Below, in pieces: positions 4,000 to 55,516 of a stretch of 64,000 nt of DNA. A program made the translations under genes and the position numbers. The notes below the pieces were generated by a model. It was given only the letters and a program-made list of their open reading frames with translations. It searched no databases and was not told the DNA's origin. Location: NCBI GenBank assembly GCA_963815255.1, contig CAWFGH010000009.1:63467-127466 (forward strand). The letters are read 5' to 3'. The number at the start of each line of letters is the position of its first letter. The first letter of the stretch is position 1. Origin of the DNA: an uncultured delta proteobacterium (GTDB taxonomy: Bacteria; Desulfobacterota; Binatia; Binatales; Binataceae).

Positions 4000-4332
4000 A
4001 TGAAGCCAACATCTACAGATCGTCGACGCTGGATGAGCAGGATAGCCGGTATCACCGCAGCTATATTGCTTCTGGCGCAGACGGTTGGTGTTGCGCATTT
4101 CCATCCGCTCCCCTCCCAGCAGAAATACGTCACCAATGCCGCCGTCAGCGTTGACGACGGCCTCTGTGCGCTCTGTCTCGTCCGCTTCCATAGCCCGGCC
4201 GCATTGATCGTCGCGCCTCATCCGGCGGCGCCGATCATGGTCGAAGTGACCGCTCTTGGCGCGGCTAGGATGGAGCCGCTTTCTTCGTATCGATCGCATC
4301 GCTTCGGCCGGGCTCCGCCCGCGTCGGTCTGA
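4000..4332 (+). CDS. Hypothetical membrane-anchored protein (single N-terminal TM, GLCALCLV motif); possibly a DUF2946-like partner of the TonB-dependent receptor
   Basis: ORF with a hydrophobic N-terminal segment directly upstream of the TonB-dependent receptor. Not confidently recognised. Confidence 0.3.
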   Translation: MKPTSTDRRRWMSRIAGITAAILLLAQTVGVAHFHPLPSQQKYVTNAAVSVDDGLCALCLVRFHSPAALIVAPHPAAPIMVEVTALGAARMEPLSSYRSHRFGRAPPASV

Positions 4333-4444
4333 ACTCCCCGTTTCTGGCAAAACTCAGTACTCAATTGCGCGCGGCCTCGGTCGCGCGCGGTGCCGCGCGC
4401 GCGAAATCGCGGCGGCGTGATGCTTTGCTCTGGAGGAGTGTGCG

Positions 4445-6841
4445 ATGCGATCTTTACCCCTGCTTGTGCTGGGACTGGCAACCCTGTTGATCCAGATATT
4501 CTTGATATTCGTCTCGTCTGCCGAAGGTTCACAGACGTCTAAGGTGACGCGGCAGACCGTCACTGGAACCGTTACCGACGCACTTGGCAGGCCGCTTGCG
4601 GGCGCCAACGTGGAACTCCAGAACAGCGCCGGCAAGACCGTCGCGAAAGCGAAAAGCGACGCCGAGGGCCGCTTCACTTTTGCCGACGTCGCGCCCGGCG
4701 TCTACGCGGTCGTCGCCAAGAAGGCGACCTTCAAGCCCGCGACCTCGATCGTCAGCGTCGCGGCATCGGGCGCAAAACCCTTGACGCTCGCGCTTCAGTC
4801 GGAAGCCGCGCTTAGCATGGCGGTGGTGGCGCAGCGCCTCAACAAGGCGCGCAACAGTCTGTCGCCGGAGACGGGAGGCAGCGTCTATCGCTTCAGCGAG
4901 CAGGCGATCAAGGACCTGCCTCAGGGCAATAATACTGCGCTGAACGACGTGCTGCTTCAGGCGCCCGGCGTGGTGCAGGATTCATTCGGCCAGCTCCACG
5001 TTCGCGGCGACCATGCCAACCTGCAGTACCGGATAAACGGGGTTCAGTTGCCGGAAGGCATCACCGGCTTCGGCCAGGTGCATCAGTCCGCGCTTTGCGC
5101 AAAGCATAAGCCTGCTGACCGGCGCCCTACCTGCCGAGTTTGGACTACGCACCGCCGGCGTCATCGACATCAAGACCAAGGACGGATTGCTGGAAAACGG
5201 CGGCGATGTCGAGTTCTACGGTGGGCAGCGCTCGACGATACAGCCAAGCTTCGAGTATGGCGGTTCAATCGGCAAGTTCAGCTACTTCGTGACGGGCCAG
5301 TACCTCAGCACCACCCGCGGTGTCGAGCCGCCGACTCCGGGGCCGTCACCGATTCACGACCAGTCTTACCAGGGCCAGGCGTTCGGTTATTTTTCGTATT
5401 TTCTGAGCCCCACCACACGGCTCAGTCTGGTAACGGGTTCGGACGTGAACCATTTCCAGATCGGGGCGAATCCTGGCCAACCTCAAGTCTTTGCGCTATC
5501 GGGCGTTCCGGTCTATCCGTCGGCGGGCATCGATGAAAACCAGTTCGAACAGAACTACTTCGGAGTATTCGCTCTGCAGGGGACTATCGGCTCGAACTTC
5601 GACTATCAGATCGCGCCCGTTCAGCCGCTATTCGACGGTATCGTTCTACCCGGATTTCGACGGCGACCTGATCTATCAATGGCGCCGCTTCCAGGGTGTT
5701 CCGAAGCGATTGGGGAAACGGCATTCAGGCCGATGCGACCTACAGGGCATTCGCATCACATACGTTTCGTCTCGGCGCATTCTTCGATTCCGAGCGCGCG
5801 GAAATCGACAATCACGAGGCGACCTTCCCCATCGTCAATGGCACTCCTTCCAATCTTCCGATTTCGATCGTCGACAACAAGGCGCTCCAGACCTGGATCT
5901 ATAGCGTCTATGCGCAGGACGAATGGAAGCCAGTCGAGAAGCTCACGATCAACTATGGCGTGCGCTTTGACCTGTACGACGGGCTGACGCGGGCGGACCA
6001 GGCGAGTCCGCGGGTGGGTGCGGTGTATAGCCTCTTCAAGGGCACCACGCTCCACGCTGCCTATGCCCGGTATTTCACGCCGCCGCCGACGGAACTCGTT
6101 TCGGTAAGCGACATCGCGAAATTTGCCAACACCACAGGCGCAACACCTAGCATGGGCAATGGCAACCCGACCGTCGAGCGCGATCACTATTTCGATGCCG
6201 GTATAACCCAGCAAGTGATTCCGGGACTCAACTTAGGAATAGATTCGTACTACAAAAAGGCCCGTGACCTGATCGACGAGGGACAGTTCGGCCCCGCCCT
6301 TATCTTTCAAACCTTCAACTACGCGAAAGGCCGCGTCTACGGCGTCGAACAAACGGGCTCGTACACTCACGAAAACCTGTATCTGTACGAGAACTTCGAC
6401 TACAGCGTCGCGCAGGGCACTCAGGTCGAATCCGGGCAATTCAATTTCGCGCCGGACGAACTCGCTTTCATCAAAACTCACTATATCTTCCTGGATCACG
6501 ACCAGACCTTCTCCGCCTCGGCCGGCGCCGTCTACAGATGGCAGGGGTTCACGTTCAGTATCGATGGAATCTACGGGAGTGGGCTCAGAGCCGGCTTCGC
6601 CAACACCGGCAACCTGCCGTACTACATCCAGATCGACGCCGGTATCCGCAAGCGCTTCGTCCTGCCCAATGCTGGCGCGATGGAAGTGCGCGCTGCGGTA
6701 GTCAATCTCAACGATCGTACGTACGAGATTCGTAACGGAACAGGGATCGGCGTCTTCGCACCGCAATTCGGTCCGCGCCGCGCGTTCTACGGCGGAATAA
6801 AGTGGGACCTTCCTTCCTTCAGCCGAACCGCCATACAGTGA
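4445..6841 (+). pseudogene. TonB-dependent outer-membrane receptor (carboxypeptidase-regulatory-like N-domain, plug and beta-barrel) interrupted by three +1 frameshifts
   Basis: The signal peptide, CarbopepD-reg-like domain and plug (RINGVQLPEGITGFGQ) are in frame 2. The continuation ISPRFAQSISLLTGALPAEFGLRTAGVIDIKTKDG is in frame 0 from about 5080. NFDYQIAP shifts to FSRYSTVSFYPDFDGDLIYQ near 5615 and to RVFRSDWGNGIQADATYR near 5683. The C-terminal barrel is intact through 6841, and a good RBS (ggagga) precedes 4445. Confidence 0.7.
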
Positions 6842-51660: not shown

Positions 51661-51858
51661 CTAGGCGTGCCGATGCATCAGTGGGCACTGGCCGCCGTGG
51701 CTGCCGCCTTTACAACACGATTGCGATGGGCAGCACGCTTGCTTGCTCTGGCAGCAGGCCGGCGGATCGAGGTTGCGGCTGGCCAATACATAGCCGCCTG
51801 TGCCCAGAACGCCAATCAACATCATCGCGGCGAATGCCTTAAGCGATATCCGTTTCAT
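51661..51858 (-). CDS. Small secreted Cys-rich peptide (65-aa precursor: signal peptide plus CC-x5-CC-x4-CC, His-rich tail)
   Basis: Strong RBS (aagggagcgggcATG). The sequence is MKRISLKAFAAMMLIGVLGTGGYVLA | SRNLDPPACCQSKQACCPSQSCCKGGSHGGQCPLMHRHA. It sits in a ~600-bp lower-GC intergenic region. Confidence 0.4.
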   Translation of the reverse strand: MKRISLKAFAAMMLIGVLGTGGYVLASRNLDPPACCQSKQACCPSQSCCKGGSHGGQCPLMHRHA

Positions 51859-52116: not shown

Positions 52117-53355
52117 ATGGCCAAATCAGAGAACGTTTATATCCTCGGTGGCGCGCAGAGCGACTTCGCCCGCAACTGGAACAAGGAGGGCAAGCATTTT
52201 TCCGCAGTGATGCGCGAGACGGTTAACGCCGGGATGCAACAAGCGCGAATCGAGCCGCGCGAAATCCAGACCGCGCACGTCGGCAACTTTGCCGCCGAAC
52301 TCTACGGCAAGCAGGGCCAGCTCAACGCCTTCTTTCTCGAGGTCGACCCGCATTTCTTCGGTATCCCGACTTCGCGTCATGAGGCCGCCTGCGCCTCTGG
52401 TTCGATCGCCATCCTCGCCGCCTCGGCCGATATCGAAGCCGGCCGTTACGACCTCGCCGCCGTGGTCGGCCTGGAGCAGATGAAGACCGTCGATTCCGCG
52501 ACCGGCGGCGATTTCCTCGGCACCGCGGGATGGTACGAGCGCGAGTGCAAGGGAGTTCCTTATCCCTTCCCGGCGCTGTTTGGGCGCCTGGGCGACGAAT
52601 ACGACAGGCGCTACGGGCTCAAGGACGAATATTTGGCTCGCATCTCGTCGATCAATTTCTCCAACGCCCGGCGCAACCCGCTCGCGCAGACGCGCGGCTG
52701 GCCGCAGGCCGAAAGCGACCCGCAGCAGGCGAAAAAGTTCGACCAGCCAATCGCGGGCCGCATCAAGGTGCGCGATTGCTCGCAGGTGACCGACGGCACG
52801 GCGGTGGTGTTCCTGGCCTCGGAGAAATTCGCCGCTGACTACGCGAAGCGGCGCAACCTGAAACTGGATGACCTTCCGCGCATCCTCGGCTGGGGCCATC
52901 ACACTGCGCCGATCGAATTCGACAAGAAGATTGCCGAAAGCCGCGAGGACACCTACGTGCTCCCGCATACGCGCGAGGCGATTCTCGACGCGTTTCGCCG
53001 TGCCGGCCTCTCAGGCGTCACGCAGGTTTCTGGCATCGAGACCCACGATTGCTTCACAACCTCCGAGTACATGGCGATCGACCACTTCGGCATCACCAAG
53101 CCGGGCGAGTCGTGGAAGGCGATTGAGGAAGGCGCGATCGAGATGGGCGGCAAGATACCGATGAATCCCAGCGGAGGGCTTATCGGCGTCGGACATCCCG
53201 TCGGCGGCACCGGCGTGCGCCAGATGCTCGATTGCTATCGCCAGGTGACCGGAACCGCGGGTGATTACCAGGTCGAGGGCGCCGAGCGCTTTGCGATGCT
53301 CAATATCGGCGGCAGCGGCACGACCAGTTGCGCTTTCGTAGTGGGCAAGCATTAG
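52117..53355 (+). CDS. Thiolase-family protein (SCP-x/lipid-transfer-type thiolase)
   Basis: aaggag RBS. N-terminal VYILGGAQSDFARN and active-site Cys region (SRHEAACASGS); C-terminal GGLIGVGHPVGGTGVR. Confidence 0.8.
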   Translation: MAKSENVYILGGAQSDFARNWNKEGKHFSAVMRETVNAGMQQARIEPREIQTAHVGNFAAELYGKQGQLNAFFLEVDPHFFGIPTSRHEAACASGSIAILAASADIEAGRYDLAAVVGLEQMKTVDSATGGDFLGTAGWYERECKGVPYPFPALFGRLGDEYDRRYGLKDEYLARISSINFSNARRNPLAQTRGWPQAESDPQQAKKFDQPIAGRIKVRDCSQVTDGTAVVFLASEKFAADYAKRRNLKLDDLPRILGWGHHTAPIEFDKKIAESREDTYVLPHTREAILDAFRRAGLSGVTQVSGIETHDCFTTSEYMAIDHFGITKPGESWKAIEEGAIEMGGKIPMNPSGGLIGVGHPVGGTGVRQMLDCYRQVTGTAGDYQVEGAERFAMLNIGGSGTTSCAFVVGKH

Positions 53356-53378
53356 GAGCGCGCGCACGGTGGATTGAA

Positions 53379-54992
53379 ATGGCGGATTCCTTGCCGAGCT
53401 TTTCGCTCATCGATCAGCATCGCCGGGCGCACTCATTTCCCGGCGAGCGGCCCGCGCTGCTGTGCTTCGTCAAGGAGGATTGCCCGACCTGCGACATGAC
53501 GATGCCGCTGATCGAAGCGGTGTCGCAGGCGTTGCGCGATGAAATCGATGTAGTCGTGATGGGCCAAGACGCGGCGGGCAACGCGCTCCTCATCGAGCGG
53601 CACAATCTTACCGCGCCGATGCTCGACGATTCGGATCTGAAAATCTCTTACGCCTACAACGTCGAGATCGTTCCGACGATCGTTCTCGCCGACGCCCGCG
53701 GCGCTGAGTTGCGCCGTTTCGAGGGCTTCGACAAGTCCGACTGGCAAAGCGTGCTTTCCCAGGCGGCGCATCTGGCTGGCGGACCTCAACCGCAAATCGA
53801 CCCGCACATCGATTGGACCGCTTACCCGAAATCGCGTCCCGGATGCGGCTCGAAGTCGGTCGAGCCGGGCGTGGCCGAGCGGCTCGCCGCCGAGGCGTCC
53901 GGCTCGCGCCTGCGCGCCCGTCAGATCGAGCTTGGCGCCGACGAGGACCCGTTCGAATTCATGTTCGAGCGCGGACTGACCGACGGTCTGCCGGTGGTTC
54001 CGCCTACGCCCGAGCGCGTGATGCGAATGCTCGCCGGAACGCGGCGCGATCCGCAGGAAGTGATAGCGAGCGTGCCGCCGAATCTCGCGCCGCTCACGAT
54101 CGAGAAGGTCGCCGCCAACGCCGTGATGGCGGGATGCAGGCCAGAGTACTTGCCGGTGGTGCTCGCGGTGCTCGAAGCGGTCTGTACGGACGAGTTCAAT
54201 ATCCACGGCGTGATGGCGACGACGGCTGGCGCGACGCCGACGATCGTGGTCAACGGTCCAATCCGTCATCGGCTCGCGATGAACATGAAAGTCGGCGCGC
54301 TGGGTTCCGGGAATCGCGCCAACGCGACTATCGGGCGCGCGGTCAAGCTCGCACTACGCAACGTCGGCGGTGCGCGGCCGGGCGAGATCGAACGCACCGC
54401 GCTCGGCGGCCCGGGCAAATACACCGCCTGCTATCCCGAATGGGAGGAGCGGAGCCCGTGGGAGCCTCTGCACGTCGAGCGCGGCTTTCGCCGCGAGGAC
54501 AGCGTGGTGACGGTCTTCGCCCTGGAACCGGGGCCGCGCCTGATCGTCGACCAGCTCTCGCGCACCGCTCATGCGCTAGCAGGCAGCCTCGGAATGGCGC
54601 TCGAGAGCTGCTGGCATCCCAAGCTGCACGGCTACGGCGAAGTCCTGCTCGTCATCTCGCCCGAGCATGCCGATACGATCAAGCGCGACGGCTGGAGCAA
54701 GGCGCAGGTGCGCAATCGAATCCAGGAGGCGAGCGCGCGGCCGATTCGCGAATTGTTGCCCGACGCCAACGCCGGCGAGGGAATGGCGCTTAAGCAGTTC
54801 GGCCTGGCCAACCCTTCCGCGGACCAGCTCGAGCAGCGCATCCCCAAGTTCCGCAAGCCCGAGAATATCAATATCATCGTGGCCGGCGGTGAGGCCGGCA
54901 AGTTTTCGAGCGCGTTTGGCGGATGGTTCAGCGGGCCGATGGGCTCGATAAGCGTGAGCCGTAAGATCGAGGAGGTGCCAAGATCCGAATGA
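53379..54992 (+). CDS. Hypothetical protein with N-terminal thioredoxin-fold CxxC (CPTC) domain and a large uncharacterised C-terminal domain
   Basis: LLCFVKEDCPTCDMTMPLIEAV...VEIVPTIVL matches a TlpA/thioredoxin-like fold. Its stop overlaps the downstream selenoprotein start (ATGA). Confidence 0.55.
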   Translation: MADSLPSFSLIDQHRRAHSFPGERPALLCFVKEDCPTCDMTMPLIEAVSQALRDEIDVVVMGQDAAGNALLIERHNLTAPMLDDSDLKISYAYNVEIVPTIVLADARGAELRRFEGFDKSDWQSVLSQAAHLAGGPQPQIDPHIDWTAYPKSRPGCGSKSVEPGVAERLAAEASGSRLRARQIELGADEDPFEFMFERGLTDGLPVVPPTPERVMRMLAGTRRDPQEVIASVPPNLAPLTIEKVAANAVMAGCRPEYLPVVLAVLEAVCTDEFNIHGVMATTAGATPTIVVNGPIRHRLAMNMKVGALGSGNRANATIGRAVKLALRNVGGARPGEIERTALGGPGKYTACYPEWEERSPWEPLHVERGFRREDSVVTVFALEPGPRLIVDQLSRTAHALAGSLGMALESCWHPKLHGYGEVLLVISPEHADTIKRDGWSKAQVRNRIQEASARPIRELLPDANAGEGMALKQFGLANPSADQLEQRIPKFRKPENINIIVAGGEAGKFSSAFGGWFSGPMGSISVSRKIEEVPRSE

Positions 54993-55516
54993 CCCAAGCG
55001 ACCAAAATTGTCGACCCGACCGACGAGCGCGTGCCGCTCAGCCGCACCCTCGCGTCGCGCCCGCAACATCTAAGCGGCGTGGTGGCGCTGCTCGACATCG
55101 TCAAGCCACGTGGCGACATCCTGCTCGACCGAATCGAGCAGCGGCTCGCTGAGCGCGTGCCCGGCCTTGCGCTCAAGCGGTACCGCAAACCAACGTTCGC
55201 CAAGCCGGCGCCTGATGACTTGCGGCGCAGGATCGCCGCGGAGAGCGACTTCGTTATCGAAGCGCTCGCCGATTGAGGGTCGTGTACAACGTGCAGTGTG
55301 CACGACTCAGTATGGTTTGAAGTGAACGGCAAGCCCTCGGTGGTGGTGGCGTCCTCGACGTTCGTCGATGCGGCTGAGGCGCAGGCGCGCGCGCTCGGAT
55401 TGCCCGACGTGCGCCGCATCTTCGTTCCGCATCCGATCCAGGACGCGACCGACGACGAGATGCGCGCGAAGGCCGATGCGATCGTCGAGCGTCTGATCGA
55501 GGCGCTGACCAGCTAG
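54989..55516 (+). CDS. UGSC-family selenoprotein candidate; the in-frame TGA at 55274-55276 is read as selenocysteine (motif D-U-G-S-C)
   Basis: Two same-frame ORFs (54989-55276 and 55298-55516) are separated only by the TGA. Read-through gives ...FVIEALAD-U-GSCTTCSVHDSVWFEVNGKP.... A hairpin follows 3 nt after the TGA. Confidence 0.55.
55279..55306 (+). promoter_or_regulatory. SECIS-like stem-loop immediately 3' of the in-frame UGA
   Basis: GUCGUGUAC AACGUGCAGU GUGCACGAC: a 9-bp stem (including one G-U pair) with a 10-nt apical loop. Confidence 0.45.

Follow-up and report, generated by a model that had tools for sequence, protein, structure and literature searches.

UGSC selenoproteins are paired with a partner protein, often fused to a thioredoxin domain, whose large C-terminal domain lacks a database match

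In a 64,000-nt stretch of DNA from an uncultured delta proteobacterium of the Binataceae (contig CAWFGH010000009.1, positions 63,467 to 127,466; hereafter the window), the gene of a UGSC-family selenoprotein is directly preceded by a gene whose product, designated here as the partner, combines a small thioredoxin-fold domain with a much larger C-terminal domain (C-domain). The partner is nearly obligate for UGSC, and the conserved unit comprises these two genes rather than the three-gene operon, with an upstream thiolase, that had been proposed in a first inspection of the letters and open reading frames (ORFs) of the window (the sequence-only reading). With a probability that we put at about 55%, the pair is a translationally coupled module acting as a thioredoxin-driven selenol/thiol reductase, to which the thiolase is merely a syntenic neighbor. 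The window has a G+C content of 57-68%, and the closest public homologues are found in metagenome-assembled genomes (MAGs) of Candidatus Binataceae.

Listings of the UGSC family date back to 2007-2008 (Zhang and Gladyshev) and name Hyphomonas neptunium as a host (PMC1976440, PMC2398784); the family is today covered by models in both Pfam (PF24696) and NCBIfam (NF041046); its function was still described as uncharacterised in a 2026 review (PMC13188914). What is new here is a near-obligate partner of UGSC that is unannotated beyond its small thioredoxin domain and whose main domain matches no sequence family or PDB entry. Neither this operon partner nor its frequent fusion to a thioredoxin domain is described in the searchable literature. 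A long-uncharacterised selenoprotein thus gains a definite, testable partner together with a candidate electron-entry route, which provides a concrete start for biochemistry.

The three genes at 52117-55516 are co-directional and tightly packed, as the sequence-only reading had described them (Table 1). The thiolase and the middle gene are indeed close, but the spacing had been given as 24 nt and the intergenic gap is 23 nt; it contains GGAG and GGTGGA Shine-Dalgarno-like motifs, with the next ATG at 53379. The 4-nt overlap reported between the middle gene and the selenoprotein gene was found as described, the TGA stop of the former and the ATG start of the latter sharing the sequence ATGA (54989-54992), and it is through this overlap that the module is translationally coupled.

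Table 1. Features of the thiolase-partner-UGSC locus (positions are those of the window).
Feature	Position	Strand	Basis
SCP2-type thiolase gene, 412 aa	52117-53355	+	PRK06289, Thiolase_N, Thiolase_C_1
UGSC partner gene, 537 aa: thioredoxin-fold domain, linker, C-domain of ~345 aa	53379-54992	+	ORF, homologues, AlphaFold2 (AF2) model
TlpA/ResA-like thioredoxin-fold domain, ~aa 1-132	53379-53774	+	Foldseek, sub-threshold Pfam matches
Redox motif C35-P-T-C38	53481-53492	+	sequence motif
C-domain, ~aa 190-537, uncharacterised	53946-54989	+	conserved columns; family without database match
UGSC selenoprotein gene, 175 codons	54989-55516	+	PF24696, NF041046
In-frame TGA, predicted selenocysteine (Sec) codon 96	55274-55276	+	TGA aligned in 76 loci
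Hairpin resembling a Sec insertion sequence (SECIS), directly after UGA	55277-55308	+	folding energy, 34-sequence comparison

Scanning one genome per GTDB species with a C-domain profile yielded 80 loci, distributed among Binatia, Dehalococcoidia, Pseudomonadales, Vicinamibacteria, Acidimicrobiia, Myxococcota, Alpha- and Betaproteobacteria, and others. In 76 of these loci, the C-domain gene is followed directly, on the same strand and usually within tens of nt, by a UGSC gene, which bears out the proposal that the middle gene and the selenoprotein gene form a functional unit. An all-versus-all comparison of the ORFs located within 7 kb of the partner gene, performed on 83 loci, revealed only two conserved neighbor families, the partner itself (83/83) and UGSC (79/83); the next was a family III CoA-transferase, present in 14 loci. 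The pairing is also seen with distant homologues. A metagenome scan with the UGSC alignment, in which the Sec column was back-translated as Cys or Gly, returned only 12 distant loci of the Cys/Gly type, and in all nine informative contigs with a Cys-type UGSC (31-37% identity) the C-domain was encoded directly downstream or fused. In two look-ups of Sec-type UGSC, the UGSC start was found to overlap with a partner gene encoding 507 or 527 aa, and stand-alone partners devoid of a thioredoxin domain are likewise paired with UGSC.

Gene fusions occur in both orders. UGSC precedes the C-domain in P0226, P0246, P0313, and P0322, the latter two starting after the Sec codon, and the C-domain precedes UGSC in P0276, which ends at the Sec codon. 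Because the two proteins are a single polypeptide in these organisms, whichever comes first, UGSC and its partner very probably form a complex. The AF2 model of the natural Cys-type fusion P0246 (mean predicted local distance difference test score, pLDDT, 90.2; predicted template modelling score, pTM, 0.88) suggests that UGSC packs against the C-domain in a defined way. UGSC fused to a conserved domain named 'Unknown_1' was reported in 2008 in a paper on Global Ocean Sampling (GOS) data (PMC2398784), and this is probably the UGSC/C-domain fusion described here.

The third ORF matches PF24696 over profile positions 2-171 of 172 (166.6 bits, cut-off 25) and NF041046 with 162.3 bits (cut-off 125). 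It is a full-length, high-scoring member of the UGSC family with Sec in the U-G-S-C family motif and no distinguishing trait, and the window locus as a whole represents a widespread module in its ordinary form. The predicted Sec occurs in the context ALAD-U-GSCTTC and the motif extends as U96-G-S-C99-T-T-C102-x-x-H-D, with D95, G97, C99, D106, H148, and P149 as invariant residues. When the UGSC genes adjoining 78 related partner genes were aligned, the Sec position was occupied by TGA in 76, TGC in one, and TAG in one. As TGA is kept at this position in 76 loci and protein conservation extends on both sides of it, the Sec codon is regarded as real, and the in-frame TGA of the window is predicted to be read as Sec. 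Public gene calls usually split the UGSC gene into two ORFs. Single deviations from the Sec codon included TAG in a Blastococcus MAG (L041 1365-1382, GCC GAT TAG GGC), possibly through an error or in a pseudogene, and TGC (Cys) in a Lysobacter MAG (L050, ~1885-2319), and Gly occupies the Sec position (ALADGGSC) in P0390 and P0396.

Directly downstream of the UGA, the window sequence folds into a hairpin with a minimum free energy of -25.4 kcal/mol (z = -2.6). Its core stem pairs 55288-55295 with 55299-55306 (nt 15-22 with 26-33, counted from the U of UGA) and closes on an apical GUG loop (55296-55298) located 20-22 nt past the UGA. Comparison of 34 distinct sequences revealed that 86.8% of the core-stem cells are paired and that G23 and U24 of the apical loop are invariant, a geometry that fits a bacterial SECIS. 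Three stem pairs were found to have changed on both sides, for instance from G-C to A-U via synonymous Ser/His codons; this covariation is modest support because the stem lies within the coding sequence. A generic terminator scan flagged the same hairpin as terminator-like, a false positive that is relevant to automatic annotation.

No selA or selB homologue and no tRNA was detected in the window, for which the Rfam and tRNA scans were empty. In several Pseudomonadales lineages, the orthologous pair is located directly downstream of selA-selB. The order selA-selB-partner-UGSC on one strand was observed in the Pseudomonadales-type loci L109-L114 (275-3845) and L021 (1470-4750), and the Sec machinery of these genomes may mainly serve UGSC.

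The spacing of the UGSC center recalls the CxxCxxC arrangement that is a classic pattern of cluster or metal ligands. The U-x-x-C-x-x-C center and the partner cysteines might thus bind a metal, Fe-S, or Se/S species and serve in trafficking, sensing, or detoxification, a role with which both the fusion of a C-terminal UGSC part to a NifU-like domain in L085 (weak Pfam match) and the proximity of selA-selB in Pseudomonadales would be compatible. However, sel genes beside the main selenoprotein gene of a genome are a common arrangement that carries little functional information, the third Cys is absent from two of the 12 Cys-type homologues, and a fused thioredoxin domain better matches thiol/selenol turnover than static metal binding. 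A metal- or cluster-binding role is therefore considered improbable.

More than 8000 homologues of the partner were found, annotated as 'TlpA family protein disulfide reductase', 'peroxiredoxin', or 'hypothetical'. The first two labels need correction since they cover only a quarter of the protein. The AF2 model of the 537-aa protein has a pLDDT of 92.4 and a pTM of 0.75, with lower confidence in the linker (~133-190). The CPTC thioredoxin-like domain that had been recognized at the N-terminus was corroborated by Foldseek, which aligned the N-terminal ~132 aa with ResA, DsbE, and TlpA-like structures of the PDB (E 1.5e-9; template modelling score normalized to the target, TM(target), 0.79-0.85). 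In the model, C35-P-T-C38 is positioned at the start of a helix (36-51), and C-x-T-C is found in 74 of the 83 orthologous ORFs. Sequence matches are confined to the first ~120 residues of the partner, and their scores remain below the Pfam cut-offs (Redoxin 26.2 versus 26.6, AhpC-TSA 25.2 versus 26, Thioredoxin_2 24.6 versus 27) and far below that of the NCBIfam ResA model (25 bits versus 170). The domain thus superposes on the TlpA/ResA/DsbE oxidoreductases (TM ~0.8) and carries their CxxC, but it differs from them by its sub-threshold scores and by its position within a protein of which it represents only a quarter, the larger domain being unrelated. Also, the classical members are exported or membrane-anchored proteins of cytochrome maturation, whereas no N-terminal hydrophobic segment or signal peptide was found in the window protein or its orthologues (83 ORFs), and on this ground the thioredoxin domain is predicted to be cytoplasmic. 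Its identification as a peroxiredoxin of the AhpC/TSA type was rejected, given an AhpC-TSA score below the cut-off and a motif that is a thioredoxin-type CPTC outside the peroxiredoxin context. A monothiol variant occurs in Dehalococcoidia UBA2979 (L012 9683-9718), where the motif is C-P-T-T, the second Cys being replaced by Thr (ACA). Three of the four C-domain genes found without a neighboring UGSC gene (L008, L023, L024, and L068) carry the thioredoxin domain.

The remainder of the partner had been described as about 400 aa without a motif that could be placed, and this description held: residues ~140-537 matched no Pfam (E<=10), NCBIfam, or PDB sequence, and profile searches and structure prediction resolved the C-domain to no well-known family. 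Whether queried as a single sequence, as a 46-member profile, or member by member, the C-domain gave no match in Pfam, NCBIfam, or PDB sequences. The Foldseek search of the PDB with the P0246 fusion model returned no match at E<=0.001 and nothing aligned to the C-domain. The locus itself is unsurprising and the part of the earlier claim that concerned the thiolase is unsupported; the value of the present data lies in the pairing and in a partner domain family that is missing from Pfam and NCBIfam and for which no PDB relative was found by the PDB sequence and Foldseek searches made here, the thioredoxin domain accounting for all 50 matches listed for the whole-partner model.

With 5,491 clusters at 50% identity (E<=1e-3), the C-domain family is dominated by stand-alone proteins of ~350 aa, and further includes tandem duplicates of ~710 aa and fusions to UGSC. 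Its conserved motifs are DGLPVVPPT (202), MAGC (C253), RANATIGRA (313), KYTAC (C351), PEH (428), and AGGEAGK (502). About 20 positions are invariant, including D202, G203, L204, and P205 of DGLPxxPPT, A251 and G252 of MAGC, N315 and G319 of RANATIGRA, P428 and H430 of PEH, and G293, P294, N328, G330, E354, W361, and G503; near-invariant residues are C253, C351, K347, R313, R320, H365, and E367. The recurrence of tandem duplicates (P0133, P0150, P0151, P0165, P0204, and P0244, each of ~710 aa) suggests that the C-domain works as a dimer. At L104 4362-6914, UGSC precedes the gene of a 637-aa protein with two tandem C-domains, after which come ABC transporter and DAO/Fer2_4 oxidoreductase genes.

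From these elements, the best reading that we infer is a thioredoxin-fed relay, in which the UGSC/partner complex would be a thioredoxin-driven reductase. Reducing equivalents would enter via the fused thioredoxin domain, or, in organisms lacking the fusion, via free thioredoxin with thioredoxin reductase, and electrons would pass from C-x-T-C to U-x-x-C-x-x-C and then to the two conserved cysteines of the C-domain. Seven candidate redox residues are thus carried by three domains (C35 and C38; U96, C99, and C102; C253 and C351). The Sec-x-x-Cys-x-x-Cys center of UGSC would act as nucleophile and reductant, ending the cycle as a selenenylsulfide that the fused thioredoxin domain would re-reduce, and the C-domain would hold the substrate site, C253 and C351 serving as additional relay or catalytic residues. 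Three observations are suggestive of this mechanism. The U-x-x-C-x-x-C spacing of UGSC is the same as that of GrdB, in a system where GrdA is reduced by thioredoxin (PMC13188914); a thioredoxin-reductase-like Pyr_redox_2 gene adjoins paralogous UGSC/C-domain pairs in L105 and L106; and some stand-alone pairs are clustered with TRAP or ABC transporters, IclR or GntR regulators, and CoA ligases or transferases, the pairs of L085, L104, and L107 being situated within transporter and regulator clusters.

The likeness to the substrate-specific selenoprotein B of glycine/sarcosine/betaine reductase and D-proline reductase (GrdB/PrdB, PF07355) is one of working logic only, namely a small alpha/beta domain carrying a Sec-x-x-Cys(-x-x-Cys), a catalytic partner that is a separate unit, and thioredoxin as the putative electron donor (PMC13188914). 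UGSC has no detectable sequence relationship with these proteins, no GrdA, GrdC, GrdE, or PrdA gene is found nearby, the hosts of UGSC are mainly aerobes and not Stickland fermenters, and no Pfam family is related to the partner domain. Membership of UGSC in the GrdB/PrdB family was therefore rejected, as PF07355 was not matched.

Several points weigh against a thioredoxin-driven reductase. The putative catalytic role of the C-domain is deduced only from its conserved residues, as no structural or sequence relative was found. Neither the window UGSC nor 11 homologues displayed similarity to GrdB/PrdB at E<=10, and the weak fold matches of the P0246 fusion were generic flavodoxin-like proteins (lumazine synthase, PurE, RpiB, and PTS IIB; E>=1e-3 over ~160 columns), which probably align to its UGSC part. 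Searches by tblastn and hidden Markov models found no UGSC within 10 kb of the C-domain in four of the 80 loci, the neighbor survey identified no conserved third gene that would indicate a pathway for the thioredoxin-fused subfamily, and the catabolic contexts of the pairs are varied and anecdotal.

The same chemistry might serve in antioxidant defence or repair, for instance as a reductase of peroxides, sulfoxides, or protein disulfides. In such a system, UGSC would provide the peroxidatic or resolving selenol, the thioredoxin domain would recycle it, and the C-domain would be mainly a scaffold or docking platform. A thioredoxin fold with C-x-T-C and a Sec-x-x-Cys center are typical of thiol oxidoreductases, most such selenoproteins are classed as redox proteins in reviews (PMC2398784, PMC13188914), the host bacteria are mostly aerobic heterotrophs, AhpC-TSA-like genes are found directly upstream of the pair in L001-L003, and the pair has no conserved pathway neighbor. 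However, a domain of 345 aa in which ~20 polar and Gly/Pro positions are invariant and two cysteines are conserved exceeds the needs of a scaffold, the active-site pattern of peroxiredoxins is absent, the motif being a CxxC with AhpC-TSA matches below the cut-off, and some stand-alone pairs occur in catabolic-looking clusters of transporters and regulators. An antioxidant or repair function is thus regarded as rather unlikely, and the thioredoxin-driven reductase is preferred. Going further, it is tentatively conceivable that UGSC and its partner constitute an unrecognised thioredoxin-dependent selenoenzyme, with a catalytic subunit whose fold has no solved relative, that reduces or reductively cleaves a small metabolite; such an enzyme would be a functional counterpart of the Stickland reductases in organisms other than anaerobic fermenters, and would occur widely among aerobic bacteria of soil, freshwater, and the sea.

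Individual loci illustrate the diversity of the genes surrounding these pairs. In the deltaproteobacterial loci L105/L106 (605-6044), Pyr_redox_2 is accompanied by two to three UGSC genes, two C-domain genes (one of them UGSC-fused), and DUF6282, followed by the genes of two acyl-CoA ligases and of a MaoC hydratase, with a TRAP transporter also present; this is a paralogous expansion of the module in an apparently catabolic cluster. L085 (5853-8931) contains a stand-alone C-domain gene into whose start a CoA_transf_3 gene extends; the weakly matching NifU-like domain is fused here to the post-Sec part of UGSC, and DctP, IclR, MaoC, and AMP-binding genes follow. In a Chloroflexi lineage (L115/L116/L119 1-859), the second gene upstream of the pair encodes a fusion of an acyl-CoA dehydrogenase with DUF3179, a domain that is listed in reviews as a selenoprotein family.

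The first gene of the locus is an ordinary member of the SCP2-type thiolases, matching PRK06289 ('acetyl-CoA acetyltransferase') over its full length with 616.4 bits (cut-off 375) and displaying the nucleophile Cys in ACASG (residue 91 on), HDCF at 310, and GHP at 359; only its position beside a selenoprotein pair is unusual. The sequence-only reading had regarded this thiolase as a coupled partner in what might be a 'redox-linked lipid or CoA-thioester module', that is, one operon of three genes in which CoA-thioester chemistry would be coupled to both redox proteins. The 23-nt same-strand gap is devoid of a terminator-like site, which is in line with such an operon, and the thiolase may be co-transcribed with the pair. 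Direct adjacency is maintained in Binataceae orthologues with 78-99% identity, and the order zwf-(3-hydroxyacyl-CoA dehydrogenase)-thiolase-partner-UGSC is retained in this family at 78-90% identity. At 70% identity, however, four genes (PhzF, a small ORF, AhpC-TSA, and a Kelch-propeller gene) separate the thiolase from the partner. Searches of the 10-kb flanks of the 80 C-domain loci, made for both thiolase and UGSC, detected a thiolase of the window type in only three. Such a thiolase was confined to Binatia loci and, on the opposite strand, a single Anaerolineaceae locus. The recurrent companion of this thiolase is rather a 3-hydroxyacyl-CoA dehydrogenase, which directly precedes it where present and is paired with it in L090, L091, and L001, the two forming a standard beta-oxidation pair. 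No decayed 3-hydroxyacyl-CoA dehydrogenase gene was found in the 690-bp gap upstream of the window thiolase.

Since acyl-CoA genes adjoin the pair elsewhere, as with the acyl-CoA dehydrogenase and enoyl-CoA hydratase genes directly upstream of it in a Chloroflexi lineage, their enrichment was tested for the families CoA_transf_3, Acyl-CoA_dh, MaoC, Thiolase, and adh_short, by comparing the immediate neighbors (two genes upstream and two downstream per locus) with distal genes of the same loci (more than three positions away). These families represented 24 of 284 immediate neighbors versus nine of 150 distal genes (Fisher p=0.45), so that no enrichment supports a CoA-thioester module; the genomes carrying the pair are generally rich in acyl-CoA genes. 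The CoA-transferase III found in 14 of the 83 loci and the overlapping CoA_transf_3 gene of L085 would be further arguments for a link with CoA metabolism. Overall, of the neighborhood that had been proposed as a unit, UGSC and partner are conserved across phyla and the thiolase adjacency, confined to Binataceae, is not. The three-gene functional model is largely refuted by this phylogenetic distribution, and a coupling of thiolase chemistry to the two redox proteins appears highly unlikely; the thiolase is a lineage-specific syntenic neighbor in Binataceae, an ordinary beta-oxidation gene outside the conserved module.

Two further observations concern the surroundings of the pair in Binatia. 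In the Binatus orthologues with 70% identity (L001 6348-7976 and 10154-11830; L002 1-1710 and 3853-5508), the pair is flanked by a small AhpC-TSA gene and the genes of two Kelch beta-propeller proteins, none of which occurs in the window. The 690-bp gap between zwf and the thiolase contains, on the minus strand (51661-51858), a 65-aa ORF with a hydrophobic N-terminus and a Cys-rich tail (PPACCQSKQACCPSQSCCKGGSHGGQCPLMHRHA), the product of which might be exported and bind metal as a small peptide; gene calls in two orthologous Binataceae contigs, L088 and L089, include a gene of 65 aa at the matching position (4326-4523, minus strand).

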